A DNA stretch of 55,910 nt from a virus (IMGVR_UViG_3300044954_000249:1-55910), one strand, 5' to 3'. Shown: positions 8,782 to 32,166, counted from the first letter of the stretch. Translations and numbers: made by a program. The notes: generated from the letters alone by a model not told the origin.

Positions 8782-10419
8782 ATGAGTAAAGTCCTTCATG
8801 TCAAAAAGCGGAACGGTCGCCTCGAAAACCTCAATATTAATAAAATAAATTTATGCGTAGAAAGAGCCTGCTCTGGATTAGAAAACGTTTCTGTTAGTGA
8901 GATCATCCTTGACGCTCATGTTCAGCTTTATGATAAGATTCCGACCGCTGAGATAGATAAGGCGCTCATCATGTCTGCGCGGACTAAGATTGAAAAGGAG
9001 CCCAATTATGCCCACGCCGCTTCTCGTCTTCTATTAGCCACTATTCTTAAGGAGGTTTTCGGAGAAAATTGCGATAGGGACGCTTTTGAGCATCAATATA
9101 AATCTTCTTTTATTAAAAGCATTAAGATGCTCGTTAAGGAAGAGGTTATTAATCCGAAACTTCTTGAATTTGATCTTAAGAAAATATCAGATGCAATTAA
9201 GCCAGACCGAGATTTAAAATTTAAATATCTTGGTTTGCAGATTGTATATGATCGTTATCTGCTTCATTTGAAGGGCCGTAGGCTTGAAACCCCGCAGGGA
9301 TTCTGGATGCGCGTAGCAATGGGTCTAGCTCTAAACGAGCAGAATAAAGAAGAAAAGGCAATCCAATTTTATGATGCCTTTTCTCAGTTTTTACTTTGCC
9401 CAAGTACTCCGACTCTTTTTAATAGCGGGACTATGCACAGCCAACTTAGTTCTTGCTATCTAAATACCTTCGATGATTCTATTGACGGAATTTTTGAAGG
9501 CTTGTGGCAGGAGGCTCGCAAATCTAAATTCGCTGGCGGTTTGGGCTTCGACGTGACTAATTTCCGTGCCGCAAATGCCTACGTTAAAGGGACCAACGGC
9601 AAATCCTCCGGCTTGATTCCGTGGCTTAAGATTTACAATGATACACTAATCGCAGTTGATCAGGGAGGTAAGAGGCCCGGGGCGGGATGCGCTTATCTTG
9701 AGACGTGGCATTTGGACCTAGAGGATTTTCTCGACTTAAAGAAGAATACCGGTGATGAGCGTCGCCGCTGTCACGATATGAATACAGCGAACTGGATTCC
9801 CGATCTTTTCATGCGTAGAATCCAAGAGGATGGAGACTGGTATCTTTTTTCTCCAAGCGACGTTAGAGATTTGCATGAGACCTATGGGGAAGATTTCGAT
9901 AATAGATATTTAGGTTATTGTAAGAAGGCTGAAGCTGGAGAGCTTCTCAATTTCAGGAAAGTCAAGGCGAAGGAGTTGTGGAAGAAAATGCTCCGCGTAC
10001 TATTTGAAACTGGGCATCCGTGGATAACTTTTAAAGATAACGCCAATTTAAGATATTCAAATTCCCACGAAGGAACGGTTCATAGTTCAAACCTGTGTCT
10101 AACTGGTGATACTCAAATATATGCCTTAGTTGATAAAATGCCAACCCACATAAGCCTAAGAGAGCTAAACGACCTATTCTCACTTAGCAAAGACATGAAA
10201 GTGTTGAGCTATAATGAAAAAGAGCAAGCTTATGAATACAAGAGTATATTAGCTTCGGCCCTGACCAAGAAAAATGCAGATTTGATTAAAATTACCGATT
10301 CTCAGACCGGTAAATCCATTAAGTGTACGCCCGAACATAAAGTTTTTACAAAAAATAGAGGCTACATCCAAGCTAAAGATCTAGCTCCTATGGATGAGCT
10401 AGAAATTCTGGATAACTGA
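8782..10419 (+). CDS. nrdA: Ribonucleotide reductase alpha subunit, N-terminal part, fused to split intein N-fragment
   Basis: ATP cone (VKKRNG), STPTLFNSG, LSSC, QGGKRPGA; extein ends SSNL, followed by intein CLTGDT...CTPEH. Confidence 0.95.
   Translation: MSKVLHVKKRNGRLENLNINKINLCVERACSGLENVSVSEIILDAHVQLYDKIPTAEIDKALIMSARTKIEKEPNYAHAASRLLLATILKEVFGENCDRDAFEHQYKSSFIKSIKMLVKEEVINPKLLEFDLKKISDAIKPDRDLKFKYLGLQIVYDRYLLHLKGRRLETPQGFWMRVAMGLALNEQNKEEKAIQFYDAFSQFLLCPSTPTLFNSGTMHSQLSSCYLNTFDDSIDGIFEGLWQEARKSKFAGGLGFDVTNFRAANAYVKGTNGKSSGLIPWLKIYNDTLIAVDQGGKRPGAGCAYLETWHLDLEDFLDLKKNTGDERRRCHDMNTANWIPDLFMRRIQEDGDWYLFSPSDVRDLHETYGEDFDNRYLGYCKKAEAGELLNFRKVKAKELWKKMLRVLFETGHPWITFKDNANLRYSNSHEGTVHSSNLCLTGDTQIYALVDKMPTHISLRELNDLFSLSKDMKVLSYNEKEQAYEYKSILASALTKKNADLIKITDSQTGKSIKCTPEHKVFTKNRGYIQAKDLAPMDELEILDN
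10096..10416 (+). mobile_element. Split intein N-fragment in NrdA (107 aa)
   Basis: Block A CLTGDT, block B IKCTPEHKVFT, RGYIQAKDL, then stop. Confidence 0.93.
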
Positions 10420-10505
10420 CGGAACAATGACGGACATAAGAATTTCATCTTATCTAAAGACGACAAAAGAATTAAATAAAATAAACTTAAAGTAGGAAAA
10501 ATATC

Positions 10506-10604
10506 ATGCTGACAATTGAAAAGGTAAATTATCAAGAAGACGTGTTCGATATAACTGTGGAAGATAACCACAATTTTTTTGCAAATGATATATTGGTTCA
10601 TAAT
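10506..10604 (+). mobile_element. Split intein C-fragment in NrdA (33 aa)
   Basis: Blocks F and G ending His-Asn; the +1 Cys is at 10605-10607. Confidence 0.93.
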
Positions 10605-11726
10605 TGCACGGAGATCTTTTTACATACTAAGCCTTCTAAATACGAAGAGGGAGAAAAAAAGGAAGTCGGAGAAGCGGCCGTTTGCAATCTCTCTTCGGTT
10701 AATCTTAAAGAACACCTCAAGAACGGGAAGCTGGATTATCCTCTGCTAGCTAAAACTATCGCTACTCAAATTAGGGCTCTTGATAGCGTAATAGATTTAA
10801 ATTTTTATCCGACAAAAGAAGCCGCAAATTCTAATCTAAAGCACCGCCCAGTCGGGGCTGGTTCAATGGGGTGGGCTGACGTTTTTCATGCCTACAAGAT
10901 AGATTTTTCTTCTGAAGAGGCCATTCAATTCTCTGACGAACTACAGGAATTTATTTCTTATCATTGTATTCTGAATTCCTGCGCTTTAGCTAAGGAAAAG
11001 GGAAAATACTCCACTTACAATAATTCTCTTTGGTCTAAGGGGGTCTTACCAATTGATACTTATAAGTCCTTGATGAATTATCTCAAGCAAGATCCAATAG
11101 AATTTAAATCAAATAAATTCTCTCCTAAAGTCGATTGGGACACGCTTCGCGCCTCTATCAAAGAGCATGGGGTTCGCAACAGCAACACGATGGCTATTGC
11201 CCCTACGGCTACCATCTCTTATATTCAGGGGTGCTCTCCATGTATAGAGCCAGACTTCTCTACTCTATTCGTTTACGAAAATAAGAGCGGCAATTTAATG
11301 ATTACAAATGAATGGTTCGTAAATGAATGTAAAGAATTGGGGATCTGGAACAAGTCATTAATTGAAATGATTAAATCTGTTGATGGAGACTTATCTCAAT
11401 TAAACGGTTATATACCGGACGACTTGAAGAAGCGTTACTGTACCGCTTTTGACAGAGACCAATTCAAACTCGTCGATGCTGCCGCAGCCAGACAAAAGTG
11501 GATTGATATGGGGCAAAGTTTGAATTTATTCAACTCTAACACGTCTCTTAAGTTTCTAAATGATTTGTATATTCACGCTCGTAATAGAGGATTGAAAGCT
11601 ACTTATTATCTGCGTAATAAATCAGCGAGCAAAATCGAAAAGTCGGTGACCAAAACGCCAGAAACAAACAATAGCGAACCAAAAGCGTGCAGCATCTTAA
11701 ATCCGGGCTGTGAATCTTGTCAATAA
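10506..11726 (+). CDS. nrdA: Split intein C-fragment fused to ribonucleotide reductase alpha C-terminal part
   Basis: VFDITVEDNHNFFANDILVHN|CTEI, then VCNLSS, AIAPTATIS, GLKATYYLR and C-terminal redox Cys (CSILNPGCESCQ). Confidence 0.95.
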   Translation: MLTIEKVNYQEDVFDITVEDNHNFFANDILVHNCTEIFLHTKPSKYEEGEKKEVGEAAVCNLSSVNLKEHLKNGKLDYPLLAKTIATQIRALDSVIDLNFYPTKEAANSNLKHRPVGAGSMGWADVFHAYKIDFSSEEAIQFSDELQEFISYHCILNSCALAKEKGKYSTYNNSLWSKGVLPIDTYKSLMNYLKQDPIEFKSNKFSPKVDWDTLRASIKEHGVRNSNTMAIAPTATISYIQGCSPCIEPDFSTLFVYENKSGNLMITNEWFVNECKELGIWNKSLIEMIKSVDGDLSQLNGYIPDDLKKRYCTAFDRDQFKLVDAAAARQKWIDMGQSLNLFNSNTSLKFLNDLYIHARNRGLKATYYLRNKSASKIEKSVTKTPETNNSEPKACSILNPGCESCQ

Positions 11727-11731
11727 TTAAT

Positions 11732-12745
11732 ATGAGTAATAAAACCGGAGCATTAATGGGAGAAGATGTAGCTGGGGTAAATCAAATTTTACCGCATAAG
11801 CATCATTTTGCATGGGATCTATTTTTAAAAGGGGTTGCTAACTCTTGGAGCCCAGCAGAAGTTAATATGTCCACTGACGTTAGACAGTGGAAAGACGGAA
11901 CACTAACTGGAGACGAGAAGCTGCTTGTTAAGCGTTGTTTGGGTTTTTTTGCTGGAAGTGAATCTCTTGTAGGGAATAATCTTCTTCTAACGGTTTTTAG
12001 ATGGATTACGGACGCCGAGTGTCGTCAGTACGTTTTAAGACAAGCGTACGAAGAGTCTCTACATAACTGGACAGTTGTCACTTCTTGCGACTCCTTCTCA
12101 CTGAAAATTAATGAAGTATATGAGGCATATTTAAATATTCCAAGTATCAAGGCTAAGGATGATTTTCTATTATCTATTACAAGTGACGTAAATAGACCAG
12201 ACTTTAGTACTAAAACCATCGAAGGGAAAAGAGAGCTTCTCCGTAATTTAATTACTTATTATATTGTCTGCGAAGGAACCTTCTTCTTCTCTGGCTTTGC
12301 CATGCTTCTCGCTCTTGGCCGTCAGAATAAGCTACCCGGCCTTTCCGATCAAATCCGCTATACGTTAAGGGATGAAAGCTTGCATATCAAGTTCGGAACC
12401 TATTTAATTAATTCTATAAAAGAGCAGTATCCGTCCGTTTGGAATAAAAAGTTCGAGGAGGAGACCCTAGAACATATTAAAAAGGCCGTGGAGCTTGAAA
12501 TAACGTACGCACATGACGTTTTACCGAGGGGTATCCTCGGCCTAAACGCCGAAATGTTTGTTGATTATATGAAGTATATTGGTAATAGGCGCCTTGAATC
12601 AATTGGGATAGACTTTAGATTCGATAGCGATAAAAATCCGTTCCCGTGGCTCTCAGAGGTCATCGATATGGGCGCAATGACTAATTTTTTTGAGCGGAAA
12701 GTTAAGGATTATCAAAATTCAGGAGCTTTAGAGGACGATTTCTAA
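11732..12745 (+). CDS. nrdB: Ribonucleotide reductase beta subunit, class Ic-like (no radical Tyr)
   Basis: FFAGSESLVGNN, EESLHNWTV, EGTFFFSGF, RDESLH, NFFERKVKDYQ. ATG 11732 preferred over the track's TTG 11717. Confidence 0.93.
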   Translation: MSNKTGALMGEDVAGVNQILPHKHHFAWDLFLKGVANSWSPAEVNMSTDVRQWKDGTLTGDEKLLVKRCLGFFAGSESLVGNNLLLTVFRWITDAECRQYVLRQAYEESLHNWTVVTSCDSFSLKINEVYEAYLNIPSIKAKDDFLLSITSDVNRPDFSTKTIEGKRELLRNLITYYIVCEGTFFFSGFAMLLALGRQNKLPGLSDQIRYTLRDESLHIKFGTYLINSIKEQYPSVWNKKFEEETLEHIKKAVELEITYAHDVLPRGILGLNAEMFVDYMKYIGNRRLESIGIDFRFDSDKNPFPWLSEVIDMGAMTNFFERKVKDYQNSGALEDDF

Positions 12746-14645: not shown

Positions 14646-15497
14646 ATGAAAATATACCTTGGATTAACTACTCAAAATCAAGCCCATAATATAGATGAGC
14701 TAACAAAAGGATGCTTTGAATATTTTGACGGGATCATCAGTGTCGATGGTGGGTCTAACGATGGTACCATTGAGATATTAGAGTCTAGAAAAAAGGAGGG
14801 ATGCGTTATCCATAGAAAATGGACAAACGACCACGACTTTCAAAACAACGAGATACTAAGGCAAGGGCCAGCTAGAATAGGAGATTGGATTTTCTTAAGA
14901 GATTCAATGGAAAGATTCAATCTTGATTTCGTTAAGAATATCAGGCAATTCGTAGGATTTTGCAAGGTTAATGACGTAAGGTATACTCATTGTCATGGTA
15001 AGGGTTTCGGGTTTGAATATTATGACGACTTATTCTTTCTCGGAAGTCCACATTGGGGGCTAAAAGGAGTGCGGCCTAAATTTTTAAATATGTTTGATCT
15101 TTATCCAATCGAAAAAGATTTTGCGTATAGAATTCATGATGGGGAGCCCGGCGGAAGACCAAAGCATAATTTCATAGATCATTTCTTAAAATACTATTAC
15201 GTTTATGGAAGAACAAACCATTTACTACTTGGTAGAGAGGGGAAACAAGAAGAATTTAATAAGCACGAAATGAATCGCCAAAAATTCAGAATTCATTGTA
15301 TGAATCTCGGCTTAGATTTTACTATTGATTCCCTTAAGAATTATCTGGCGAAAGATGATTGGAAAAAAGACAAAGAGTTTGTTGAGATGTTCAATATGGA
15401 AGAAATATTAAAAACCTTTTATAGATGGCATATCTTAAAGCACGATTTAGAAACAATTCAAAAAGATAGAGAGACTTGGAATTTGGAAATCCAATGA
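14646..15497 (+). CDS. GT-A glycosyltransferase (GT2-like)
   Basis: ISVDGGSNDGTIEIL, W...DF..N, DWIFLRDSME. Confidence 0.8.
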   Translation: MKIYLGLTTQNQAHNIDELTKGCFEYFDGIISVDGGSNDGTIEILESRKKEGCVIHRKWTNDHDFQNNEILRQGPARIGDWIFLRDSMERFNLDFVKNIRQFVGFCKVNDVRYTHCHGKGFGFEYYDDLFFLGSPHWGLKGVRPKFLNMFDLYPIEKDFAYRIHDGEPGGRPKHNFIDHFLKYYYVYGRTNHLLLGREGKQEEFNKHEMNRQKFRIHCMNLGLDFTIDSLKNYLAKDDWKKDKEFVEMFNMEEILKTFYRWHILKHDLETIQKDRETWNLEIQ

Positions 15498-16252
15498 AAC
15501 TGCCTTTAAATCTAGCCGTTTTTACTACTTCCGTCGGACACTATGGTAGGAAGGACATATATAAATCCACCGTAAATAATCTTTTTTCTAAAGTAGACAA
15601 GAATATATTTTCTGGCCTTATTACCCATATAAAAGTCCGATCCGGAGAAGAAGATGTAGCTAATGAAGCCGAATTGTTCTTTAATGAATTAGGCTTTAAT
15701 GTTTTAAGAACTGACAGCAACTTCAAGCGTAGTGATCATTTAAGGCATGGTCAAGAATACATAAATGACATATATAAAACTTTTTCTAGCGCCGAAATCC
15801 AGAGAAACCAATATACTCTTTGGTTAGAAGATGACTGGATTATCGATGTTAAAGAGAAGGATTTATATTACTATCTTGAAAAGGCCTGCAATCTTCTCTC
15901 CGAAAATAGAGATTTAATGACATTAAGAATAAACTCAAAAAGTACGCAAGACTTTAATGAGGGACAAGTAATAAGAAAGAGGGATTATATTCTTCAAAAT
16001 GTTAATTTTACTCAATACGGTCCTTGTTTTACATTTCAACCCAATATCTCGAGGTCAAGAGATTTATGGTTAGGTTGGAGGACTATTCTTGCTAATAATG
16101 ACAGGGTAGGACATTTACATATAGAATTGAAGTCCGGGATGGGCATGAAGGCATTATGCGACTCCCAAACTCCTTTTGGATTTTTCGATTTTAATTCAAT
16201 AAAATCAATACATATAGGCGAACCCCCATTTGAAAAGCTGGCAGATTTATGA
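15494..16252 (+). CDS. GT-A glycosyltransferase-like protein
   Basis: YTLWLEDDW, FTFQP and HIG motifs; ATG 15494 overlaps the upstream stop (ATGA). Confidence 0.7.
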   Translation: MKLPLNLAVFTTSVGHYGRKDIYKSTVNNLFSKVDKNIFSGLITHIKVRSGEEDVANEAELFFNELGFNVLRTDSNFKRSDHLRHGQEYINDIYKTFSSAEIQRNQYTLWLEDDWIIDVKEKDLYYYLEKACNLLSENRDLMTLRINSKSTQDFNEGQVIRKRDYILQNVNFTQYGPCFTFQPNISRSRDLWLGWRTILANNDRVGHLHIELKSGMGMKALCDSQTPFGFFDFNSIKSIHIGEPPFEKLADL

Positions 16253-17043
16253 AGATTAGCATATACTCAACCGCATTTAACATTGTAAAGAACAACTTCG
16301 ATTACGAAGACGCATTAAGAAATTTTCTTTATTATGCCGACGAGGTTTGTCTTGCGATAAATAAAAGTGAAGATGATACTCTAAATGTAGTATCTAAGTA
16401 TGTCGCCGACAATAAGTTAAATGTCAAAATAATAGCAACGGAATTTGAATATGATGATCCATTCTGTTATGGAAAAATAGTTAATGCTGGCCTACAAGGA
16501 TGCACTGGCAATATCTGCATTTTGCAAGACTTGGATGAGCGGTTTGGCGGCAAGAAAGAATACCTAACGAAAGTGTGCGAGCAATTTTTAGTTCTCAATG
16601 AAACTAAGGCTCTTTTCGTTCCGGTTATGGATCTTTACGGAGACTTCGAGCATTATAAGGCCATAAATTTTAAATGGTATATTCATAAAAGCGGCTTGTA
16701 CAGAGGCGCAGTTAACTTTGGCATAAAAGAAGATGGCAGGCCAGACTATCATAAAACAAGTACGGACGAATTAATAGACAAAGATGGAAATCTAGTTCCT
16801 ACTATTAATATGGTTAATTCTTTGGGTCTACAAGATCCATATGAATATATAAAAAGAGGATATCCATTTGTCTACCATCTTGGATATACCGATCTTCATA
16901 AACGAGTTTTAAGAAATCACTTTTGGAAAGCCTATTGGGAAAAGGCTACTGGGGGCGATAAGAATAACCATTCACTCGACATAAACGACTTACTCGGCAA
17001 AGAATATCCGAGGCATAATCTGCCACTTTGGAATAAGATTTAA
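16249..17043 (+). CDS. GT-A glycosyltransferase (GT2-like)
   Basis: ADEV, SEDDT, ILQDLDE, YHLGY. Confidence 0.8.
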   Translation: MKISIYSTAFNIVKNNFDYEDALRNFLYYADEVCLAINKSEDDTLNVVSKYVADNKLNVKIIATEFEYDDPFCYGKIVNAGLQGCTGNICILQDLDERFGGKKEYLTKVCEQFLVLNETKALFVPVMDLYGDFEHYKAINFKWYIHKSGLYRGAVNFGIKEDGRPDYHKTSTDELIDKDGNLVPTINMVNSLGLQDPYEYIKRGYPFVYHLGYTDLHKRVLRNHFWKAYWEKATGGDKNNHSLDINDLLGKEYPRHNLPLWNKI

Positions 17044-17044
17044 T

Positions 17045-17722
17045 ATGAAATTAGATACTACGCAAAAGGTGGAAAAGATCTTTGAAATTGAAAATTCAAT
17101 CTTATTAGCTCAATTTAATAAATCCGGTATTGACCCGAAGATAATTGAAAAAGAGGGAGCCTCTGGTACGTTCGGTAGACATTTACATAATAATCTTGGA
17201 AGAATTTTTGGTAAAGATCTTTCTTACTTAGAGATTGGAACTCAAAGGGGGTTGTCATTCTGCACGGCGCTCATTAATAATGAATATTCTTACGCTTGCG
17301 TTATTGACAATTGGTGTCAGGGCGAATTCCGTAAAGAGTTCAACGAAAACGTAGAGCAATTCTTAAAAGATAAGAAGTTTGATTTATACGACCAAGACTG
17401 CTGGGCTATAGATCTTAAAGAACAAATAAAGCAAAAAATAAATTTCTATTTTTATGACGGATGCCACGAACAACCGTCTCACGAAAAAGCTTTTACTTAT
17501 TATAATGAGGCGTTGGATGACACTTTCTTATGCATGATAGACGACTGGAACTGTGAACGAGTAAGGGCGGGTACTAGAGGCGCGTTTGCAAAATTGAATT
17601 ATAAGATATTGCATGAGCGTAGCCTTTTTACTGAAAATTATGACAGCAGAATGGGGTGGGGGGTGGGTGATCCCAGAACTTGGTGGAATGGTTTATTTGT
17701 CGCATTAATAGAGAAGAATTGA
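17045..17722 (+). CDS. Class I SAM-dependent methyltransferase (Methyltransf_24-like)
   Basis: YLEIGTQRGLS, FYDGCH, IDDWN. Confidence 0.85.
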   Translation: MKLDTTQKVEKIFEIENSILLAQFNKSGIDPKIIEKEGASGTFGRHLHNNLGRIFGKDLSYLEIGTQRGLSFCTALINNEYSYACVIDNWCQGEFRKEFNENVEQFLKDKKFDLYDQDCWAIDLKEQIKQKINFYFYDGCHEQPSHEKAFTYYNEALDDTFLCMIDDWNCERVRAGTRGAFAKLNYKILHERSLFTENYDSRMGWGVGDPRTWWNGLFVALIEKN

Positions 17723-17734
17723 TATAATAGATAT

Positions 17735-18631
17735 ATGAAATCTCTTGTAACAGGTGGTGCGGGCTTCATAGGGAGCCATATCGTAGATAAACTCATAAAC
17801 TTGGGTCATGAAGTTCGGGTAATTGATGACGAGTCCGCCGAATGTAATGAGACATTCTATAAAAATCCTAAAGCGCAACATCATAAAATAGATATATGCG
17901 ATTTCGATGGAATTCTACCTATATTTAGCGGTATAGATTACGTATTTCATTTAGCGGCGGAATCAAGAATCCAACCCACCTTAGCTAGACCACAACGCGC
18001 ATGTCAAGTTAATGTAACGGGTACATGTAACGTCCTTCAGGCCGCAAGAATTAACAATGCAAAGAAGGTCGTTTATTCTTCTACCTCTTCCGCATATGGC
18101 TTAAAGAATGTCCCTCCCCTCAAAGAGGATATGAGTAGGGATTGCTTAAATCCATATTCTGTCACTAAGGTTGCTGCGGAAGATTTATGCAAAATGTATT
18201 ATAGTCTTTTTAATTTACCTACTGTTATCTTTAGATATTTTAATGTATATGGGGAGCGTCAGCCACTCAAGGGGCAATATGCCCCAGTTATTGGAATATT
18301 TTTAAGACAAAAAGCCGCCGGAGAATCAATGACGGTAGTGGGGGATGGATTACAAAGGAGAGACTTTACGCACGTAAGTGACGTTGTAGACGCGAACATA
18401 AACGCGGCTTTTGATACAAACCCAGAAAATCTAGGTCAAATTTTTAATATTGGTACCGGAAGAAACCATAATATGTTGGAGCTATGCGAGATGATTGGTG
18501 GCAAATATAAGTTCATCGCGCCCAGACTTGGTGAAGCGAGGATTACATTGGCAGATATATCGAAGGCAGAAAAGTCACTAAACTATTATCCCAAAGTCAC
18601 TCTAGAAAAATGGATCCAAGAAAACAGATAG
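17735..18631 (+). CDS. NAD-dependent nucleotide-sugar epimerase/dehydratase
   Basis: VTGGAGFIGSH, YSVTK (YxxxK), RYFNVYG, GDGLQRRDFTHV. Confidence 0.93.
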   Translation: MKSLVTGGAGFIGSHIVDKLINLGHEVRVIDDESAECNETFYKNPKAQHHKIDICDFDGILPIFSGIDYVFHLAAESRIQPTLARPQRACQVNVTGTCNVLQAARINNAKKVVYSSTSSAYGLKNVPPLKEDMSRDCLNPYSVTKVAAEDLCKMYYSLFNLPTVIFRYFNVYGERQPLKGQYAPVIGIFLRQKAAGESMTVVGDGLQRRDFTHVSDVVDANINAAFDTNPENLGQIFNIGTGRNHNMLELCEMIGGKYKFIAPRLGEARITLADISKAEKSLNYYPKVTLEKWIQENR

Positions 18632-18637
18632 TTCAAA

Positions 18638-19777
18638 ATGGACCTGCTTTTCAGAAATTTTCATTTGGAAAATGTTTCTTCCTTCCGCGAAGCGTTAAAA
18701 CTTAAAGGGGAGAGGGTCCTCATCTATTTCCCTCATGGGCTTGGAGACTGGGTTATGTTCAATAACATAATTCAATTCTTAGATAATTCAAATGATTTTT
18801 TTATTACAAAATTGGGGGATGACTATACGAGCATACAAGAGGGATCAATAATAAAACCGGTATATTGTGGCATAAATAACCTACAAAATTTAAATAATAC
18901 AGAAATTAATAATCTGAATTTTAAACATAAGACTAATCTTAGATTAACTGGGGCGTTAGAGTCTTTATGTAAAAAACATAATATAAAATATCTTTATTAT
19001 GAACCTTTTCCAGAAGGGAGAACTTCATGGCCATATAATTCAAAACCCAGAAGCCTAGTCGGAGGATCGTGTGACCAAATTAGTGAAGAAAAAAAGAAAC
19101 TTTTGACATCAGTCCTAAAAAATTCAATTTCAATAGAAGATAATCAATTCATTTCAAATTTCGTTTTTTCTAGATTAAGTTCTTATACAAATTTTACATA
19201 TGGATCTAAATTAGTACTTATCGGTAGACATGGAGCGTCTCAAGCTGGTAAAAACTGGGGACATCTTTTTAGAAACGAAAAATATAAGGAGGAGGGAGAC
19301 GAGGCGCGGGAGTTCATAGATTTGTGTTTGAAGAAAAATAAAGATACCTTTTTTATATCTTTAGAACATAGTGGTCTCAAAGGAAAAGATTCTTTAACAG
19401 ATCACAGTAAAAATACCTATACTTACGACGAGCTTTTCGGTCTCGCGGAAAGCCATAAGTCTTTACCGTTTGCGGTAGTCCTAAAGTCGCTCTGTAATTT
19501 TGCCTCCGTCTTTGTCGGTGTTCCATCCGGTCCGATGGGGGTTGCTTCTCTATATGAAAATTTATTTTCTATCAATCTTTGGATCGGGCTTTTTCCATGT
19601 TGGTATTTTGAACCCAAGAAAAATGAAATAAATTTAATATCTAGTAACGTACAAGTGCAAAAAGACCAAATGACCTTCGATTCAATGGGGGACATAAAAT
19701 ATAATAATCATTATCTTAACGAGCGCTATATAGGCGGACAAACAGTTTTTAATTTTGCGGAGGGGTTATTGTGCTAA
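18638..19777 (+). CDS. GT9 (heptosyltransferase)-like glycosyltransferase
   Basis: PHGLGDWVM and VFVGVPSGPM motifs. Confidence 0.65.
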   Translation: MDLLFRNFHLENVSSFREALKLKGERVLIYFPHGLGDWVMFNNIIQFLDNSNDFFITKLGDDYTSIQEGSIIKPVYCGINNLQNLNNTEINNLNFKHKTNLRLTGALESLCKKHNIKYLYYEPFPEGRTSWPYNSKPRSLVGGSCDQISEEKKKLLTSVLKNSISIEDNQFISNFVFSRLSSYTNFTYGSKLVLIGRHGASQAGKNWGHLFRNEKYKEEGDEAREFIDLCLKKNKDTFFISLEHSGLKGKDSLTDHSKNTYTYDELFGLAESHKSLPFAVVLKSLCNFASVFVGVPSGPMGVASLYENLFSINLWIGLFPCWYFEPKKNEINLISSNVQVQKDQMTFDSMGDIKYNNHYLNERYIGGQTVFNFAEGLLC

Positions 19778-20388
19778 AGAATTATATAAAGCTCGCAAAT
19801 GGATTAATTAAGCAGGAGTATTATGAAAAAATCCAATATGGATATGACTACTCTCAAAAAAGAAACTACGGTATAGATGGAGTTAAAATATCATATCTAA
19901 GATTAGGATTTATTATTGGAGTAATAAAAAAGACCCCATCTGACATATTAGATGTCGGATATGGAAGTGGAGAATTTTTGTCTGCGGCGAAAGTGATTGT
20001 TCCGAATTGTTACGGATTTGATATATCGAGTTACCCTGTTCCTGACGGAGTTGAAAAATTAAATCAAATTTCCAATTTCGATGGAGAAGTGATCACTATG
20101 TTCGATGTGTTAGAGCATTTTGGCGACATCTATGTCATTAAGGATTTCAAGTGCAAATATTTAATTGTCTCTTTACCTAATTGTCATTACTTCTCTGATG
20201 AATGGTTTGAAAATTGGAAACATAGAAGGCCGAATGAACATTTGTGGCATTTCAATGAAAAATCATTAATAAACTTCATGGAAGAGGCGGGCTATAAATT
20301 TATATCTTCATGCAACTTAGAAGATTCCGTGAGGCTTTCTCAAGGTCCATACCCAAACATTTTGACAGCGGCATTTAAGAAAGTCTGA
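19771..20388 (+). CDS. Class I SAM-dependent methyltransferase
   Basis: ILDVGYGSGEFL, FDVLEH, EHLWHF. Confidence 0.88.
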   Translation: MLKNYIKLANGLIKQEYYEKIQYGYDYSQKRNYGIDGVKISYLRLGFIIGVIKKTPSDILDVGYGSGEFLSAAKVIVPNCYGFDISSYPVPDGVEKLNQISNFDGEVITMFDVLEHFGDIYVIKDFKCKYLIVSLPNCHYFSDEWFENWKHRRPNEHLWHFNEKSLINFMEEAGYKFISSCNLEDSVRLSQGPYPNILTAAFKKV

Positions 20389-20389
20389 A

Positions 20390-20894: not shown

Positions 20895-21944
20895 ATGAAA
20901 AAGATTTTAATAACTGGAATACTCGGGCAAGACGGTGCTAATATGGCGGAATTTCTACTTAAAAATACCAGCAATGAAATCTATGGCATGATGCGCCGCT
21001 CATCAAATCCTAATTTCATTAATATTGAAAACTTCAAGAATAACCCCCGATTCAAACTGGTTTTCGGCGATCTTGTGGATGAAGTAAGCTTAAATAATTT
21101 AGTAAAAGAAATCCAGCCTGATTATTTTGTGAATTTCGCCGCCAACTCTTTTGTCGGGATAAGTTGGGACATGCCAATTCAAGTATTCGAAGCGAATACT
21201 TTAGGAGTAATTAGAAGTTTAGAGGCCATCCGCAAGTTTAAACCAGATTGTCGTTTCTATAGCGCAGGAAGCAGCGAGGAGTGGGGAAACGTCGATTATT
21301 CTCCCCAAGACATAAGCCACCCTATCAAGCCAAGAAGCCCATATGGAGCTTCTAAAGCTGCTGCTCGGCATATAGTAAAAGTTTATAGAGAATCTTACAA
21401 TATGTATGCAGTACATGGTATTTTGCTAAATCATGAAGGCGTCAAGCGCGGGCAAGAATTTGTAACGAGAAAAATAAGCAAGGGAGTATCCAGAATTTAT
21501 CATTCTTTGAAAGCCGGTAACTTAAGCTTTGAACCAATTAAGTTAGGCAATGTATTCTCGAAGAGGGATTGGAGTGACAGTGAAGATTTCGTGGAAGGGG
21601 TTTGGCTAATGCTAAATCAGGATAAACCGAAAGACTATGTCCTTTCTTCTGGAGAAACACATAGTATAAAAGAGTTTGTAGAAAGAGCTTTCCATACGGC
21701 TAAAATTATTGGATGTTGGCTTAAAGAAAATGAGCCAGATAAAATGATTTACGCTATGCCAGTACTGGATGATTTAGAGCATGTTCCATTAGTCATTATA
21801 GATCCCAAATTCTATCGTCCGGCAGAAGTAGATTTACTATTAGGAGATTCTACCCCGATAAGGAAAGAGTTAGGGTGGGCCCCGAAAGTTACCTTTAGTG
21901 ATCTAGTCGAAAAAATGGTAAAATATGACATAAATAACCCTTGA
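20895..21944 (+). CDS. gmd: GDP-mannose 4,6-dehydratase
   Basis: ITGILGQDG, SSEEWG, PRSPYGASK, FVTRKI, KRDW, YRPAEVDLLLGD. Confidence 0.93.
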   Translation: MKKILITGILGQDGANMAEFLLKNTSNEIYGMMRRSSNPNFINIENFKNNPRFKLVFGDLVDEVSLNNLVKEIQPDYFVNFAANSFVGISWDMPIQVFEANTLGVIRSLEAIRKFKPDCRFYSAGSSEEWGNVDYSPQDISHPIKPRSPYGASKAAARHIVKVYRESYNMYAVHGILLNHEGVKRGQEFVTRKISKGVSRIYHSLKAGNLSFEPIKLGNVFSKRDWSDSEDFVEGVWLMLNQDKPKDYVLSSGETHSIKEFVERAFHTAKIIGCWLKENEPDKMIYAMPVLDDLEHVPLVIIDPKFYRPAEVDLLLGDSTPIRKELGWAPKVTFSDLVEKMVKYDINNP

Positions 21945-22318: not shown

Positions 22319-23443
22319 ATGGCTAGACCAAAGAAAGATCAAGAAGATACCCCGCAAGGAGTATCTACGGTTTCTCAAATTCAGTCTTATTTAAAGACTA
22401 ATAAGGAAGATCATTATAATTTTGAAGAGCCCCAATTATATACTGTGTCTAGCGGAAGTTTAATTTTGGATATGGAGATGGGCGGCGGGATTAGGCCCGG
22501 CATTCTTAGATTTTCTGGCGTTTCTGAGGGGGGTAAAACTTCAGCGGCCCTTTCTTTTGCTAGAAACTTTCAAAAGAGTATAGATAATTCCTTCGTAATA
22601 TATATTAAATCAGAGGGAAGACTTTCTAAAGAAGTTCTTGAAAGGTCTGGGGTTGATTTATCAGAAAGCAAATGGTTTGAATATAAATCAAATGTATATG
22701 AGTCCGTTATCTCCCTGATGAGACAACTTGTTAAGAGTAACCCAGACGGCAAAAAGTATCTTTTTATTATTGACTCGATGGACGCCCTTGTTCCACGAGC
22801 TGACTTGGAGAGACCATTTGAAGAGGCAAATAAAGTTGCTGGTGGCTCTTTATTAAGTTCTGACTTCTTAAGAAAGATGGCCCTTGGTCTTTCCTCCAAG
22901 GGACACACTTGCATAATGATTAGTCAGGTGAGAAGCGCAGTTACTATTAACCCTTATGCTAAAACTGATCCAAAAATTACAAATGCTTCGGGCGGCAACG
23001 CTCTTCTTCATTATAGCGATTGGATTCTAGAGTTCCAGCAAAGACATAAGGCCGATTTAATTTTCGGAGAATCTTCTGGTCCTAAAATTAATAAAAATAA
23101 AGAAGATATTTTAGGTCATTATTGTAAAATCGTTTTTAGGAAATCTATTAACGAAAAGACAAACAAGGAAGTAAGATATCCTATTAAATATGGTCGTAAA
23201 AACGGCCAAAGTGTATGGGTAGAGCAGGAGATAAAAGATGTATTGTTGATGTGGAATCTGGTTAAAGCGAGCGGCGCTTGGATTACTATCTCTGATGATT
23301 TAATCAAGGAACTCTCTAGTAAAAATATTGAAGTTGAAAAGCAGCATCAGGGGGAGGATAATTTCGTCAACTATCTTGAAAAGAATACCAAAATGACAGA
23401 GTATCTTTTTGATAAGTTCAGAAAGATTTTTGAGAATCAATGA
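22319..23443 (+). CDS. recA: RecA/UvsX-like recombinase
   Basis: SSGSLILD..MGGG, GVSEGGKT (Walker A), FIIDS (Walker B), ISQVR, SGGNAL, KASGAW. Confidence 0.92.
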   Translation: MARPKKDQEDTPQGVSTVSQIQSYLKTNKEDHYNFEEPQLYTVSSGSLILDMEMGGGIRPGILRFSGVSEGGKTSAALSFARNFQKSIDNSFVIYIKSEGRLSKEVLERSGVDLSESKWFEYKSNVYESVISLMRQLVKSNPDGKKYLFIIDSMDALVPRADLERPFEEANKVAGGSLLSSDFLRKMALGLSSKGHTCIMISQVRSAVTINPYAKTDPKITNASGGNALLHYSDWILEFQQRHKADLIFGESSGPKINKNKEDILGHYCKIVFRKSINEKTNKEVRYPIKYGRKNGQSVWVEQEIKDVLLMWNLVKASGAWITISDDLIKELSSKNIEVEKQHQGEDNFVNYLEKNTKMTEYLFDKFRKIFENQ

Positions 23444-23859
23444 GACTCTATAATATAAACGGAAAGCTTTCAAATAAGAATGTCTCAAAATATTTAATAA
23501 ATTGGGATAAAAAATCTAAGTCTTTCCCTCAATTTAAAACTAAGCAATTTTTAAAACCCTATTGGTTTGGACATATCGTTTATGAAGAGTTTCCTGTCTA
23601 TGGCAGCTTATTAAAGGTAGATTTCTTAAATGCTACTAAAAAAATAGCAATAGAAGTAAATGGGCCCCAGCATGACTCTTTCAATCCGTTCTTCCATAAT
23701 AATTCCAGAATGGACTATCTGAAGAGCATAAAAAGAGACTATACTAAAAGCCAATGGCTTGAAAAAAATGAGTTTTTATTGCTGCAAATAAACACTGACG
23801 AGATAAATAAGCTATCAGTCTCTTTCTTTAAAAATACATTTAATGTAGATATTGTGTAA
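23440..23859 (+). CDS. PD-(D/E)xK / DUF559-like endonuclease
   Basis: VDF...IAIEVNGPQH and RDYTK..W motifs. Confidence 0.75.
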   Translation: MRLYNINGKLSNKNVSKYLINWDKKSKSFPQFKTKQFLKPYWFGHIVYEEFPVYGSLLKVDFLNATKKIAIEVNGPQHDSFNPFFHNNSRMDYLKSIKRDYTKSQWLEKNEFLLLQINTDEINKLSVSFFKNTFNVDIV

Positions 23860-27531: not shown

Positions 27532-28287
27532 GTGGTTATTCCGCTATTTAAATCTCACTATTCAATTGGCAGAAGCATTCTTACTCTAGAGAAGGCTGGT
27601 TCCTCGGACGCAGAATCGCCCGCTTCAATTATTGATATTTGTACTGAATCAAAGATTAAGAATCTGTATCTTGTCGAAGATAACATGAGCGGATTTCTTG
27701 AGGCGTACTTAAATTCAAAAAGCTCCGACATTTCTCTCCGCTTCGGCTTGCGGCTAACTGTTTGCCCTAATCATCTGACCCAAGACGAAGACTCACTCTA
27801 TAGGCAAAGTAAATACATCATATTCGCAAATAATAAAGAGGGATATAGGCGATTGATTAAAATTTATAGCTTTTCAGCGAAGAACGGCTTCTATTATGAG
27901 CCAAGAATTGACTTTGATACATTGAAGACTCTATGGGACGATAAAGACTTATCCTTAGCTGTCCCATTCTATGATTCGTTTTTACATAAGAATTCTCTTT
28001 ATGGTTCAATCTGCTTGCCGGATTTTAGTTTTAGTAAGCCTACTTTCTTCGTAGAAGATAACGATTTACCGTTTGATCCAATACTCACTAAACTGGTAAA
28101 TGATTACGCTAACAAAAAATATGAGATCGTAAGGACGAAAAGCATTTTCTATAAAAACAGAAAAGACTTTAAATCGTATCTAACTTTTAAGTGCATTAAC
28201 AAAAGAACGACCTTAGATAAGCCAGAAATAGAGCATATGTGCAGCAACGAATTTTCTTTCGAGGGGTGGAAGGAGCAAAACGTTTAA
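27532..28287 (+). CDS. dnaE: Stand-alone PHP domain of DNA polymerase III alpha
   Basis: KSHYSIGRS, EDNMSG, FANNKEGYRRLIKIYS and GFYYEPRIDF match the DnaE N-terminal PHP domain. Confidence 0.85.
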   Translation: MVIPLFKSHYSIGRSILTLEKAGSSDAESPASIIDICTESKIKNLYLVEDNMSGFLEAYLNSKSSDISLRFGLRLTVCPNHLTQDEDSLYRQSKYIIFANNKEGYRRLIKIYSFSAKNGFYYEPRIDFDTLKTLWDDKDLSLAVPFYDSFLHKNSLYGSICLPDFSFSKPTFFVEDNDLPFDPILTKLVNDYANKKYEIVRTKSIFYKNRKDFKSYLTFKCINKRTTLDKPEIEHMCSNEFSFEGWKEQNV

Positions 28288-28288: not shown

Positions 28289-28927
28289 ATGGACGAGCAT
28301 TTATTAAGATTCAATAAAGATAAAACCCTTGTCTTTTTTGATGCAGAAACGTTGAATTTGTGCTTAAATTCTTGCCATAATTTGCCTTGGCAGATTGGTA
28401 TGATTAAAGTGGCTGGAGATAAAAAAATAGATGAAAAGAATTTTTTTATTAAATGGAATACGGACTTAAAGATAAGTGAGGACGCCGCTAGAATTACCAA
28501 ATACGACCAAAAGAAGATAGACAGAGTTGGGGTGTCTCCCGAAGAAATATTCCCCACTGTTGAAGAGTGGTTAGATAAAGCTGATTATATCGTTGGCCAC
28601 AACGTCATAGCCTTTGACATTTATTTAATTCGTGATTTCTATAAATACATGAAAAAATCGGCTAAACATCTTTATAAAAAATTTATAGACACAAATGCAA
28701 TTGCCAAAGGGGTGAAGCTTGGTTTCCCTTTCAAAAATGGAGATGATTTACAAGAGTATCAATACAGAGCATATCACAGAAAGCAAAAGGGAATTAGAAC
28801 TAACCTTACGGCGTTAGGTAAGGAAATGTCCATCGATCATGATTATGATAATCTACATGATGCACTCGTTGATTTAGAGCTCAACTTAAAGGTTTGGAAT
28901 AAATTAAAATATCAAATCGAAATATAA
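28289..28927 (+). CDS. dnaQ: DEDDh 3'-5' exonuclease (epsilon-like)
   Basis: FFDAET, VGHNVIAFD, IDT, LHDALVD. Confidence 0.9.
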   Translation: MDEHLLRFNKDKTLVFFDAETLNLCLNSCHNLPWQIGMIKVAGDKKIDEKNFFIKWNTDLKISEDAARITKYDQKKIDRVGVSPEEIFPTVEEWLDKADYIVGHNVIAFDIYLIRDFYKYMKKSAKHLYKKFIDTNAIAKGVKLGFPFKNGDDLQEYQYRAYHRKQKGIRTNLTALGKEMSIDHDYDNLHDALVDLELNLKVWNKLKYQIEI

Positions 28928-28930: not shown

Positions 28931-29167
28931 ATGGCTTCTCTTGACTTTGTAATAGATCTGCTGGAAAAAATAGAGTCTCAAAAAATGGGATATTATCTTC
29001 TAATCTCTCAAAGAGAAAAAAAGGGATATAAGTTTGATGCCTTTTATTCCCTTGATAGTGATTATGAAGTGGAAAATTTTGTGAAGGTGAACGACAAGGT
29101 GGTTAAAGATTTAAAAAAGAAGTACGGAATACGGGACACCAAGAAAAAAGGAAACAGAAAGAAATGA
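28931..29167 (+). CDS. Hypothetical protein
   Basis: 78-aa ORF coupled to dnaE by an ATGA overlap. Confidence 0.65.
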   Translation: MASLDFVIDLLEKIESQKMGYYLLISQREKKGYKFDAFYSLDSDYEVENFVKVNDKVVKDLKKKYGIRDTKKKGNRKK

Positions 29168-30942
29168 ACTTTGTAGAAAAATTTTCCGATTATAAATTAG
29201 AAATCCACGGAGTTAGACTCCCCTCATTCGAGATCGAGAAGAAATATAAGCGAGCGATTGGTGTCAGTGAGGACGTTGACAACTACGAATTTCTTCGCGC
29301 CCTTTGCCTTAATGGGTTTAAGTCTCTAAATCTTGCTAAAGATACTCCTGAGTATAAAAAGTATGCCGAAAGAGTTAAATACGAATTAGAAATCATTAAA
29401 GAATTAGGCTTTATTGATTACATTCTCTTAGTATGGGATGTCATCAATTTTTGTAAAGAAAATGATATTCCAACTGGGTTTGGCAGAGGTAGTGCGGCGG
29501 GGAGCCTTATCCTTTTTCTTGTGGGCGTAACGAAAATCGATCCTATAAAATATGATTTGTATTTTGAAAGATTCATCTCTAAAAGTCGCGCCAAAAAACA
29601 AGTTGTAGATGGAGTAACTTACCTTGATGGATCGTTAATGTGCGATGTCGATTTAGATATATGCTATTATAGTCGCTACAAAGTTATTGAGTATCTCGAG
29701 CAGAAGTTTAAAGGAAGAACTGCCAAAGTCTTGACCCTCAATACATTAAGCGGTAAACTCTTAATGAAAGAGTGTGGCAAGATAATATCAAATAAACCAG
29801 AGTCAGAGATGAATGAAGTGTCAGCCCTAATCCCTAAAACATTCGGGCAAGTAAAAGACATTAAAGACGCCTACAAAGACGAAGGGAAGTTCAAAAGCTG
29901 GTGCGATAATAATAAAGAAATTTATAATATAGCACTCGGTCTCCGTGGTTTGATTAAGAATAAGGGCGTACACCCTTCTGCCGTGTTATTATCTTATGAT
30001 TTAATGGAAGATTCTTGTCCAACCGAATTAACATCAAGTAAGGACAGCGAAGTCTCTTCTTATGATATGAATTGGACAAGTGTATTCAATGTGAAATTGG
30101 ACTTACTTGGTCTTAGAAGCGTTTCAGTTGTTGATGACACATGTAAAAATATTGGCATAAAAATGTCGGATATCGATTTTAACGAACCATCGATATACCA
30201 AAACCTACAGGAACTCAAAAGTCCCCACGGTCTTTTCCAAATTGAAGCGGATACCAACTTTAAAGTATGCAATAAAGTAAAACCTAAGAATCTCGACGAA
30301 TTAAGCGCGGTTTTGGCGCTAGCGCGTCCCGGCGCGTTAGATTATGTTGATCAATACGCTCTATTCTCTAATACAAATACAATTCAGTCAATCCATCCAT
30401 TCTTTGACGATATTCTAAATAAGACTGGGGGAGTCGCTCTTTATCAGGAGCAAATGATGAAAATGGCCAATAAAATAGGGTTTACTCTTGATGAGGCGGA
30501 GATATTAAGAAGAATTGTAGGTAAGAAAAAGATTGAAGAAGTCAAGGCATGGAAAGAGAAAATCTCTCTCAAAATTAAAGAGAATAAATTACAACCAGAA
30601 ATAGGTGATATTCTTTGGAAAGTACTGGAGGATTCTGCAAATTACAGTTTCAACAGGTGTCTCTCGGAAGATACCGTTGTAGAAACGGATCATGGGAATA
30701 AAATGCTTTCTGAGGTGAAGAAGGGGGATAAAGTGTTAGCCTATTCTGTAAAAGACGAAAAAGATCATTACGTAGAAGTCCTTGATATTCATAAAAACCT
30801 TAAGGAACTATTCGAAGTAGAACTAGAAGACGGCAGGAAAATCAAATGCTCTATGGAGCATAAATTTTTATGTGAGGATAAGAAAATGAGGCCCCTCAAA
30901 GATATCATTTCTCAAAACCATAGCATTGTATGCAATTATTAA
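29164..30942 (+). CDS. dnaE: DNA polymerase III alpha core (no PHP) fused to split intein N-fragment
   Basis: GRGSAAGS, FERF, DVDLD, HPSAV, KLDLLGL, LFQIE, YQEQ; extein ends YSFNR, followed by CLSEDT. Confidence 0.95.
   Translation: MNFVEKFSDYKLEIHGVRLPSFEIEKKYKRAIGVSEDVDNYEFLRALCLNGFKSLNLAKDTPEYKKYAERVKYELEIIKELGFIDYILLVWDVINFCKENDIPTGFGRGSAAGSLILFLVGVTKIDPIKYDLYFERFISKSRAKKQVVDGVTYLDGSLMCDVDLDICYYSRYKVIEYLEQKFKGRTAKVLTLNTLSGKLLMKECGKIISNKPESEMNEVSALIPKTFGQVKDIKDAYKDEGKFKSWCDNNKEIYNIALGLRGLIKNKGVHPSAVLLSYDLMEDSCPTELTSSKDSEVSSYDMNWTSVFNVKLDLLGLRSVSVVDDTCKNIGIKMSDIDFNEPSIYQNLQELKSPHGLFQIEADTNFKVCNKVKPKNLDELSAVLALARPGALDYVDQYALFSNTNTIQSIHPFFDDILNKTGGVALYQEQMMKMANKIGFTLDEAEILRRIVGKKKIEEVKAWKEKISLKIKENKLQPEIGDILWKVLEDSANYSFNRCLSEDTVVETDHGNKMLSEVKKGDKVLAYSVKDEKDHYVEVLDIHKNLKELFEVELEDGRKIKCSMEHKFLCEDKKMRPLKDIISQNHSIVCNY
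30658..30939 (+). mobile_element. Split intein N-fragment in DnaE (94 aa)
   Basis: Block A CLSEDT, VKKGDKVL, block B LEDGRKIKCSMEHKFL, then stop. Confidence 0.92.
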
Positions 30943-30969
30943 TGATGGAATATTTAAATAAGATTTAAA

Positions 30970-31083
30970 ATGCAAACTCTTAAAATTAAATCTATTACTC
31001 CAATAGGCATTAAGCCGACTTTGGATTTGGAGGTTAACCATCCAGATCATAATTTTTACGCTGAAGGAATCGTCACTTCTAAT
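30970..31083 (+). mobile_element. Split intein C-fragment in DnaE (38 aa)
   Basis: Blocks F and G ending Ser-Asn; the +1 Ser is at 31084-31086. Confidence 0.92.
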
Positions 31084-32166
31084 TCCCATAGCGTTGCTTA
31101 TTCAGCTTTGGCGGCCGCTACAATTTATCTTAAATTTAAACATCCTCAAAATTTCTTTTTATCTTTATTGAAAATGACGAGGCATGAGCCTGATCCGACC
31201 TCCGAAATATCTAAAATCCATAAAGAGATGGATTTGTTCTCTATTAAGTTGCTGCCTCCCCATTTGACTAAATCGAAAATAGATTTCTCCGCAGAGAATG
31301 AGAATATAAGATTTGGTCTCTTATCAATTAAGGGAATTTCAGAAAAGTCTATAGAAAAGATTAACAACTTCAGGAATGACTTCTCTAACAAATTTGAAAT
31401 ATTTAAAGCGGCAGAAGAAGCTGGTTTAAATATTGGCATTCTCTGTGCTCTAATTCAAGCTGGTACGCTAGAAGGATTTAAGCAGACTAGAAGCAGGGTT
31501 GTGCTAGAGGCTCAATTATGGCATGTCCTTTCTGAAAGAGAAAGAAAGCACGCAATGATGTTCGCCGAGCAAAAGGATTTCGATTTAGTTGAGATAATTA
31601 AATTCTTAAGGACCTTCAAGGACGAGAAGGGCAAGCCTATAATTAGAGACTCTCGTTATGAAACTATAAAGAAAAATTATCAGCCGTATCTTGAAATTTA
31701 CAATAAGAATAAAAGCTCAGAGAATTTCGCAAACTGGTATTACGAAAAAATGTTACTCGGATATACTTATAATAAAACATTAAAAGATATCTTTTCTGAG
31801 AAACGACCAGACTTATTATCTGTAAGAGAGATAAATCAACGCGCAAAAGGTGAAGAGGTAGTGTTCGTCGGGAGAGTCGAAGATTGCTATGAGGGCACGT
31901 CCAAAGAAAAGAAAACTAAATATTATAAGACTATCGCTTCTGATGAGACCGGCTCTATCAAGGTGATGATCTTCGGAGACAGAAAAGAAGAATGCAGCAA
32001 AATGAATAATGGCCTCCCAGAAGAAGGGAATATTGTGATAGTTAGAGGACGCAAGATGGATGAGGTAGTTTTTGCCGATATTATTGGAATTCAAGACAAT
32101 AAAGTCTATACAAAGTTGTCTGAAATTAAAAGAACCATAGAAAAAGAGAAAAATTTACAAAAATAA
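30970..32166 (+). CDS. dnaE: Split intein C-fragment fused to DNA polymerase III alpha C-terminal part
   Basis: TLDLEVNHPDHNFYAEGIVTSN|SHSVAY, YLKFKHP, IRFGLLSIKGI (HhH), OB fold. Confidence 0.95.
   Translation: MQTLKIKSITPIGIKPTLDLEVNHPDHNFYAEGIVTSNSHSVAYSALAAATIYLKFKHPQNFFLSLLKMTRHEPDPTSEISKIHKEMDLFSIKLLPPHLTKSKIDFSAENENIRFGLLSIKGISEKSIEKINNFRNDFSNKFEIFKAAEEAGLNIGILCALIQAGTLEGFKQTRSRVVLEAQLWHVLSERERKHAMMFAEQKDFDLVEIIKFLRTFKDEKGKPIIRDSRYETIKKNYQPYLEIYNKNKSSENFANWYYEKMLLGYTYNKTLKDIFSEKRPDLLSVREINQRAKGEEVVFVGRVEDCYEGTSKEKKTKYYKTIASDETGSIKVMIFGDRKEECSKMNNGLPEEGNIVIVRGRKMDEVVFADIIGIQDNKVYTKLSEIKRTIEKEKNLQK

Follow-up and report, generated by a model that had tools for sequence, protein, structure and literature searches.

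Fractured genes carrying split inteins were described by Dassa 2009 (PMC2677866) from aquatic phage-like metagenomes, and the loci reported there include seven fractured NrdA genes and three fractured DnaE genes. Here we describe an nrdA and a dnaE locus of this kind that lie together in one virus record, IMGVR_UViG_3300044954_000249, which was taken whole from IMG/VR (55,910 bp, linear) and is referred to below as the window. The two genes, encoding the large subunit of a class I ribonucleotide reductase (RNR) and a polymerase of the Pol III alpha type, are essential. Each is present as two adjacent open reading frames (ORFs), the first ending in an N-terminal intein fragment (IntN) and the second starting with a C-terminal fragment (IntC). 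We estimate a probability of about 0.88 that in both cases the protein halves would be joined post-translationally by a naturally split class-1 intein, and that both loci represent an end state without an endonuclease gene.

The window loci resemble those of Dassa 2009 in their NrdA and DnaE hosts, in an NrdA insertion site directly N-terminal to the thiyl-radical Cys, in the adjacency of the two halves on the same strand, and in a break placed where endonucleases insert, between the N- and C-terminal intein blocks. Relatives of the window loci also carry free-standing endonucleases of the types seen there, GIY-YIG and Vsr/DUF559-like. The differences are that the gaps in the window (86 and 27 nt) hold no endonuclease gene and that both loci lie on one 55.9-kb contig. 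The position directly before the Cys of the NLC motif, the thiyl-radical site, is given in the same paper (PMC2677866) as the commonest intein site in RNRs. With the NrdJ-1 intein (8ubs) the window NrdA intein shares a block B of the form C-T-P-[ED]-H and membership of an RNR-targeting, phage-type class; it differs in its class I NrdA host and in its insertion site, one residue N-terminal of the NrdJ site (PMC2677866). The sequence has also diverged from NrdJ-1, and its closest database relative is P0061, at 74% identity over the intein region (here and below, L denotes loci of relatives, G viral records, P proteins or protein clusters, and X1 to X3 sequencing runs). The window NrdA intein is probably similar to the metagenomic split intein NrdA-2, and its +1 Cys is presumably the thiyl-radical Cys itself.

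The window DnaE intein shares with the cyanobacterial DnaE inteins (Npu and Ssp; 4kl5, 7qil and 1zd7) the host protein family, detectable homology (E values of 2.6e-6 to 2e-9), a penultimate Ser, and the combination of a negative IntN strand with a positive IntC lead. It differs from them in having Ser rather than Cys at +1, in a block B of C-S-M-E-H as in gp41-1, and in the closeness of its halves, which are 27 nt apart, whereas the cyanobacterial halves are encoded at separate chromosomal loci. Its insertion site appears to be some four residues further downstream than that of the cyanobacterial inteins; a text search of the literature for the motif gave no match. The gp41-1 intein (6qaz) is like the window DnaE intein in its Ser+1 (native junction SSS; PMC7090010), its C-S-x-E-H block B and its phage metagenomic origin. 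It differs in its host gene and in an IntC that is mainly negative, the IntC lead of the window DnaE intein being positive; the gp41-1-like polarity belongs instead to the window's NrdA intein.

The features of the two loci are collected in Table 1. An earlier note on this stretch had proposed that nrdA and dnaE are each cut into IntN-ending and IntC-starting ORFs (107 + 33 and 94 + 38 residues), and all of its coordinates and figures were reproduced. The differences that it drew between the two pairs were likewise confirmed, in sequence, in the +1 residue (Cys in NrdA, Ser in DnaE), in the penultimate residue (His and Ser, respectively) and in the charge of IntC. Pfam recognises RNR and Pol III alpha domains in the exteins, and the Pfam Intein_splicing model matches three of the four intein pieces, each alone below the gathering score; its E values are 3.7e-7 for the NrdA IntN and 9.1e-7 for the DnaE IntN, the latter also matching Hint (1.2e-4). 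A six-frame scan of the full 55.9-kb record with PF14890 found these two loci only, and in that scan the NrdA IntC scored 38.1 bits, above the cut-off. Compared with the IntC of relatives, both split and contiguous, the NrdA IntC shows 59-69% identity, and the DnaE IntC shows 50-68% identity to the IntC of its own relatives. An AGGA lies 9 nt upstream of the ATG of the NrdA IntC.

Table 1. Predicted features of the two split loci and of adjoining genes in the window (nucleotide positions counted from its first letter).
Feature	Position	Strand	Description
nrdA N-half ORF	8782-10419	+	438-aa extein + 107-aa IntN
nrdA N-extein, 438 aa	8782-10095	+	ATP-cone, all-alpha domain, first part of RNR barrel; ends ...SSNL
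NrdA IntN, 107 aa	10096-10416	+	Cys1 (CLTGDTQ), block B KCTPEHK; stop TGA 10417-10419
nrdA spacer, 86 nt	10420-10505	+	no ORF, no endonuclease gene; IntC out of frame relative to IntN
nrdA C-half ORF	10506-11726	+	IntC, then CTEI
NrdA IntC, 33 aa	10506-10604	+	DITVEDNHNFFAN, ends HN; 7 acidic/1 basic residues
nrdA C-extein, 373 aa	10605-11726	+	begins at +1 Cys of NLC/TEI
nrdB, RNR small subunit	11717-12745	+	Pfam Ribonuc_red_sm, E 3.3e-74; operon-like run with nrdA
PHP-domain ORF, 251 aa	27532-28287	+	separate gene upstream of PHP-less dnaE core
DnaQ-like RNase_T exonuclease ORF	28289-28927	+	upstream of PHP-less dnaE core
dnaE N-half ORF	29164-30942	+	498-aa extein + 94-aa IntN (592 aa in total)
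dnaE N-extein, 498 aa	29164-30657	+	Pol III alpha NTPase + finger domains; ends ...NYSFNR
DnaE IntN, 94 aa	30658-30939	+	Cys1 (CLSEDT), block B KCSMEHK; stop TAA 30940-30942
dnaE spacer, 27 nt, AT-rich	30943-30969	+	no ORF, no endonuclease gene
dnaE C-half ORF	30970-32166	+	IntC, then SHSVAY
DnaE IntC, 38 aa	30970-31083	+	DLEVNHPDHNFYA, ends SN; 4 acidic/3 basic residues, first 18 residues net +3
dnaE C-extein, 360 aa	31084-32166	+	HHH_6 + OB fold; begins at +1 Ser (SHSVAY)

At both loci the intein sits precisely and in frame relative to intein-less homologues. For NrdA, the best 80 of 439 viral-contig relatives were compared, and the junction SSNL/CTEIFLHT is directly joined in 79 of these 80 intein-less loci, the remaining one ending at a contig edge. 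The DnaE junction YSFNK/SHS is directly joined in 59 of 68 relatives' loci; six of the others carry an intein at this position and three lie at contig ends. Because relatives join exactly at both junctions, excision of the predicted inteins would give back ordinary proteins with every residue in place. Both inteins have Cys1, which is invariant in a five-member alignment of each family, the block B TxxH motif reads T-P-E-H in NrdA and S-M-E-H, with the His kept, in DnaE, and the terminal Asn and +1 nucleophile (HN/C in NrdA, SN/S in DnaE) are kept across relatives. Within the DnaE type the conserved blocks are C1, KCSM[EN]HKF, DHNFY and SN/SH; within the NrdA type they are C1, KCTPEHK, DITV..NF and ILVHN/C[ST]EI. 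At each locus IntN is followed by a stop codon and IntC starts with an ATG of its own, and relatives have their endonuclease ORFs at the position of this break. Taken together this predicted split-intein anatomy is far beyond chance. Conservation of the catalytic blocks across each family argues for maintained splicing, and both inteins are probably active.

The splits do not appear to be assembly errors. A 1091-bp contig from X2, a lake-water run from another sample and study, spans positions 10045-11135 of the window with 0 differences and 0 gaps, so that the independent assembly agrees with the nrdA gap; an X1 contig likewise spans this gap without a difference. For the 3-kb dnaE stretch, the share of sampled words found was 1.00 in X1 and 0.85 in X2, and a sibling of the window's DnaE N-half, P0005 (83% identity across the intein region), has the same length of 592 residues and stops at the same residue. 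Several observations nevertheless weigh against our reading of the two loci. Upstream of the ATG of the DnaE IntC no clear Shine-Dalgarno sequence was seen, this IntC was not detected by Pfam, and in block B of the DnaE intein Ser replaces the usual Thr; the Ser is kept in five of five aligned DnaE-type members and in gp41-1. The evidence from sequencing runs consists of assembled contigs, from which rare variants are dropped, X1 is possibly the source sample, and none of the four matching runs is an RNA run.

Relatives of the window loci carry the two inteins in a range of states. Among those of the DnaE type, the mini-intein is contiguous and in a single frame in L049 and L200/L201. In L065 the two halves are separated by a free-standing ORF of 316 aa that matches NUMOD3 and, weakly, a PD-(D/E)XK/Vsr-like domain, and L041/L063 are split and retain only the C-terminal part of an endonuclease ORF of the L065 type. 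L061/L062 have an unusual split form, in which the N-half runs on in frame from the DnaE IntN into NUMOD4-HNH_3 (a 773-aa ORF; positions 3977-6298 of L061) and the stop after the endonuclease fusion is followed by a separate IntC-DnaE-C ORF in another frame. Inteins of the NrdA type are contiguous in L173/L174, split around a GIY-YIG ORF in L164 and L166-L170, and split around a 312-aa ORF in L171/L172, where an HNH-like motif was recognised by eye and Pfam gave no match. In L178 the NrdA-type intein is split and the endonuclease gene deleted, leaving a 73-nt gap that resembles the nrdA gap of the window. Relatives thus show the full cycle in both families, from no intein through a contiguous intein, a split around an endonuclease and a remnant to a bare split. 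The free-standing endonuclease that marks a fractured gene sensu Dassa 2009 is absent from both window loci and present in L065, L164 and L166-L172. Endonuclease loss is step III of the model of Dassa 2009 (PMC2677866), represented in the part of that paper drawn on here by the single locus gp41-7, and by their sequences both window loci are endonuclease-less fractured genes at this step.

The nearest extein relatives, 72-80% identical to the window proteins, are without inteins. Among viral contigs the nearest DnaE-type intein is 63% identical (L049) and resides in exteins 40-53% identical to those of the window, and the nearest NrdA-type inteins are 48-50% identical in IntN and 66-69% in IntC, in RNR exteins that are 26-28% identical. 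Both inteins are thus mobile elements of sporadic distribution. In protein-cluster counts drawn from a collection of 5.8 billion proteins, 46 of the 56 DnaE-type clusters and 51 of the 67 NrdA-type clusters have the length of an N-half, and in both families these stop a few residues past the same conserved motif. The split form is therefore common, not rare, in both families.

That fractured phage genes occur mostly as single loci, as had been supposed in the earlier note, is contradicted by several other records. G007 (L211 and L212; an IMG/VR record of 58.8 kb) has at least three split inteins, in a helicase, an RNR and a clamp loader. Its DnaB-like helicase gene is split around a DUF559/Vsr-like ORF, with another intein upstream, its RNR large-subunit gene carries one split intein, and its AAA+ clamp-loader gene has a split intein with a bare 28-nt gap and no endonuclease gene. 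The nrdB gene of G007 encodes an N-terminal ATP-cone. In L168-L170 a single RNR large-subunit gene is divided into three ORFs (positions 911-5162 in L170) by two different split inteins, the first at GLPIS/C with a 315-aa antisense ORF in the gap, and the second, at the NLC site, around a GIY-YIG ORF. G008 (L173/L174 and L200/L201; 186 kb, with terminal repeats and rated 100% complete) carries contiguous mini-inteins of both families, the NrdA type in its RNR and the DnaE type in its DnaE. G001 and G002, each with a split DnaE intein, also have a large intein at the same RNR site, assigned by eye to the LAGLIDADG type. By eye, G002 (L157/L163) further has a terminase-large-subunit-like frame of 1481 aa with two large LAGLIDADG-like inteins, and G004 (L152), likewise a relative with the split DnaE intein, a terminase-large-subunit-like ORF with one intein. 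Co-residence of split inteins in phages is thus not rare and follows from known biology, and no paper describing it was found in a search that left aside subscription journals and supplements.

A mechanism consistent with this organisation would begin with co-transcription of each pair of halves and translation of the C-half from its own ATG. IntN and IntC would then bind each other, probably guided by complementary charges, and form a folded HINT domain, where Cys1 would form a thioester to be attacked by the +1 Cys in NrdA or the +1 Ser in DnaE, with cyclisation of the terminal Asn. The predicted products are an 811-aa NrdA (...SSNL-CTEI...) and an 858-aa DnaE core (...YSFNR-SHSVAY...). Each locus may have arisen when a free-standing homing endonuclease gene invaded and split a mini-intein, the endonuclease gene being deleted later.

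The two inteins belong to different families, one NrdA/NrdJ-1-like and the other DnaE/gp41-1-like. Their IntN pieces are 29% identical over 70 residues and their IntC pieces share 6 of 14 residues. Of solved structures, the NrdJ-1 intein 8ubs matches the NrdA IntN best (E 2.3e-15), and the DnaE IntN is matched best by the DnaE intein 7qil (2.6e-6) and gp41-1 6qaz (3.1e-6), with Npu DnaE also matched. A penultimate Ser together with Ser+1 is found in five of five aligned DnaE-type members; the penultimate Ser is normal for this type, the window's LVVSN aligning with FIASN of Npu DnaE. Charge polarity was scored on segments that we defined ourselves and that are not structure-based, namely the 24 residues before block B of IntN and, as IntC lead, the part of IntC up to the D-x-x-V motif, and the motif search scored 38 of 68 NrdA-type and 27 of 57 DnaE-type proteins. 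By this measure the DnaE intein of the window has an IntN strand of net -3 and an IntC lead of +3, and the NrdA intein an IntN strand of +2 and an IntC lead of -2. A corresponding contrast is reported in the text used here of the Beyer preprint (10.1101/546465), where the IntC of gp41-1 is negative and that of Npu positive. Since the two window inteins are of different families and opposite polarity, orthogonality is likely, and they very probably do not cross-react with each other. It is also the default expectation from the portion of Pinto 2020 (PMC7090010) consulted here, in which inteins chosen with different exteins and low homology, in anticipation of orthogonality, showed negligible cross-reaction for 15 of 16. 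Two points tell against a simple charge code. The same Beyer preprint (10.1101/546465) reports that charge swapping alone was insufficient for orthogonality of Npu DnaE, and the two split inteins found together in L170 do not differ in polarity direction, so that opposite polarity is not a general rule.

Whether this orthogonality was shaped by selection is a separate matter. The suggestion of a naturally evolved orthogonal pair found no support, as the traits that distinguish the two inteins are inherited traits of their families or subfamilies and occur in other genomes too. Orthogonality was probably inherited by descent from unrelated mobile elements, with no sign of shaping seen in the window genome. 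The opposite view, that selection in this phage or in phages with several split inteins drove the NrdA-type intein to a polarity opposite to that of the DnaE type, draws on the opposed signs within the window and on several comparisons. In G008, where both inteins would splice in cis, the strand of the contiguous NrdA-type intein (L173) is -5, the same sign as in the DnaE type; scored split NrdA-type proteins are bimodal, 17 of 32 having a negative and 15 of 32 a positive IntN strand; and the three split inteins of G007 differ in polarity (+2, 0 and -3). A positive strand is, however, shared by the closest NrdA-type relatives on other contigs (P0061 +4, P0064 +2 and P0066 +3), so that this polarity predates the window genome. 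The same-direction pair within one gene of L170, the partial coverage and self-defined segments of the scoring, and the default orthogonality of unrelated split inteins also count against such selection, which we regard as unlikely. Similarly doubtful is the broader proposal that phages with several split inteins are selected for mutual orthogonality, and that the bimodality of the NrdA type reflects polarity switching in response to co-resident DnaE-type inteins, whose IntN strand is negative in all 22 split proteins scored. Were it true, the window would offer a pair, with Cys+1 and Ser+1 junctions, that nature has already optimised for orthogonality.

Other explanations concern the splits themselves and their use. 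Trans-splicing could act as a regulated checkpoint, such as a gate on dNTP supply and replication that depends on redox state or timing: both targets have functions that limit the rate of replication, both inteins use Cys1 and that of NrdA also has a +1 Cys, and conditional splicing has been documented for other inteins (PMC6195587, in the part drawn on here). The gaps give no support to the control point on replication that had been suggested, as neither the 86-nt nor the 27-nt gap has a promoter-like or terminator-like site, promoter counts over the whole region are at or below shuffle expectation, and the RNA fold of the two gaps is not better than that of shuffles (z of 0.75 and -0.09). 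As most close relatives do without these inteins, and their distribution fits selfish mobile elements at conserved sites, we consider a checkpoint very unlikely. That the halves function unjoined, with the intein pieces serving as dimerisation modules, has a precedent in the fragmented, intein-less NrdA of phage Aeh1, which assembles non-covalently (PMC3045599, as far as used here, and the introduction of PMC2677866); alternatively the genes might be decaying pseudogenes. Both ideas are hard to reconcile with exteins that are full-length and uninterrupted, with an NrdA break that lies inside the barrel immediately before the catalytic Cys, and with retention of Cys1, the block B His, the terminal Asn and the +1 nucleophile across relatives only 37-63% identical in IntN, and we give them scant credence. 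An assembly error, or a bypass or read-through of the 27-nt dnaE gap that would yield a cis-splicing intein, is in our judgement exceedingly improbable. The DnaE IntN and IntC do share a frame, and bypassing was raised as a formal alternative by Dassa 2009 (PMC2677866, in the part cited), yet three in-frame stops (TAA, TGA and TAA) would have to be passed, and the DnaE IntC opens with an ATG and an N-terminus (MQTLKIKS) homologous to those of IntC ORFs that in relatives follow an endonuclease gene or occupy a different frame. Moreover, the family stops at the same place in 46 of its 56 clusters, and the nrdA gap is out of frame, as the independent contig confirms.

Read as two naturally split inteins, the window is a clean example of the fractured-gene end state at two genes of one genome. 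Biologically this is no surprise, since phages with several split inteins are present in public data and unrelated inteins are expected to be orthogonal, and each window intein adds to an already known class, the endonuclease-less fractured genes. The DnaE-type family is abundant (56 clusters) and combines Ser+1, a penultimate Ser and an Npu-like polarity; no characterisation of this Ser+1/penultimate-Ser family was found in the literature searched. Together the NrdA-type and DnaE-type inteins form a candidate orthogonal Cys+1/Ser+1 pair for protein engineering, of modest but real practical value.

The Pol III alpha of the window's lineage (the window and L004-L071) lacks a PHP domain of its own. 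The separate PHP ORF aligns with residues 98-250 of Taq Pol III alpha (E 7.8e-5), and 61 of 68 relatives' loci have the same order of PHP, exonuclease and dnaE. Given this conserved arrangement of separate PHP and exonuclease ORFs upstream of dnaE, the replicase is split without inteins as well. A 78-aa ORF and the exonuclease ORF sit between the PHP ORF and the polymerase core. Between the uvsX-like and dnaB genes lies a 139-aa ORF (23440-23859, + strand) whose resemblance to DUF559/Vsr-like proteins in Pfam is weak (E 0.0018); over 118 residues it shares 29% identity with the endonuclease that splits the DnaE intein in L065 (BLASTP E 0.05), gave no match to the G007 endonuclease, and may be a free-standing or decayed homing endonuclease gene.

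The window is a fragment of a tailed phage genome from lake water, with a CheckV completeness estimate of 36% and a G+C content of 35-42%. It encodes a J-like central tail fibre, a minor tail protein and a tape-measure-like protein, together with a UvsX-like recombinase, DnaB, a primase, a PD-(D/E)XK nuclease, NrdB and many sugar-modifying enzymes. The record was matched only in lake-water metagenome runs (four found, all as contigs). A megablast search of the INPHARED phage collection with the nrdA locus gave no match, and the best tblastn matches in that collection were 52% identical for NrdA and about 30% for DnaE, so that it holds no close phage genome.

The sugar-related genes, at 7262-8344, 14646-21944 and 32766-35857, are mixed among the nrd and replication genes and include several glycosyltransferases, a GDP-mannose-dehydratase/epimerase-like protein, a cytidylyltransferase, two methyltransferases and a nucleotide-sugar epimerase-like protein; a role in DNA or surface glycan modification is possible. 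The sparsely coding left end of the window carries a tRNA-Ile gene (anticodon TAT; 3139-3212, - strand) and a dUTPase gene (4271-4750, - strand). In one X3 contig the match to the NrdA IntC is confined to its final ~33 nt (10573-10605), up to the splice junction at 10604/10605, beyond which other sequence follows; the same contig has a further short match near 27823 (the 27823-27941 region), and a high-depth contig in X1 and X2 skips 27832-27941. The partial match and the skip probably reflect other organisms or related inteins.

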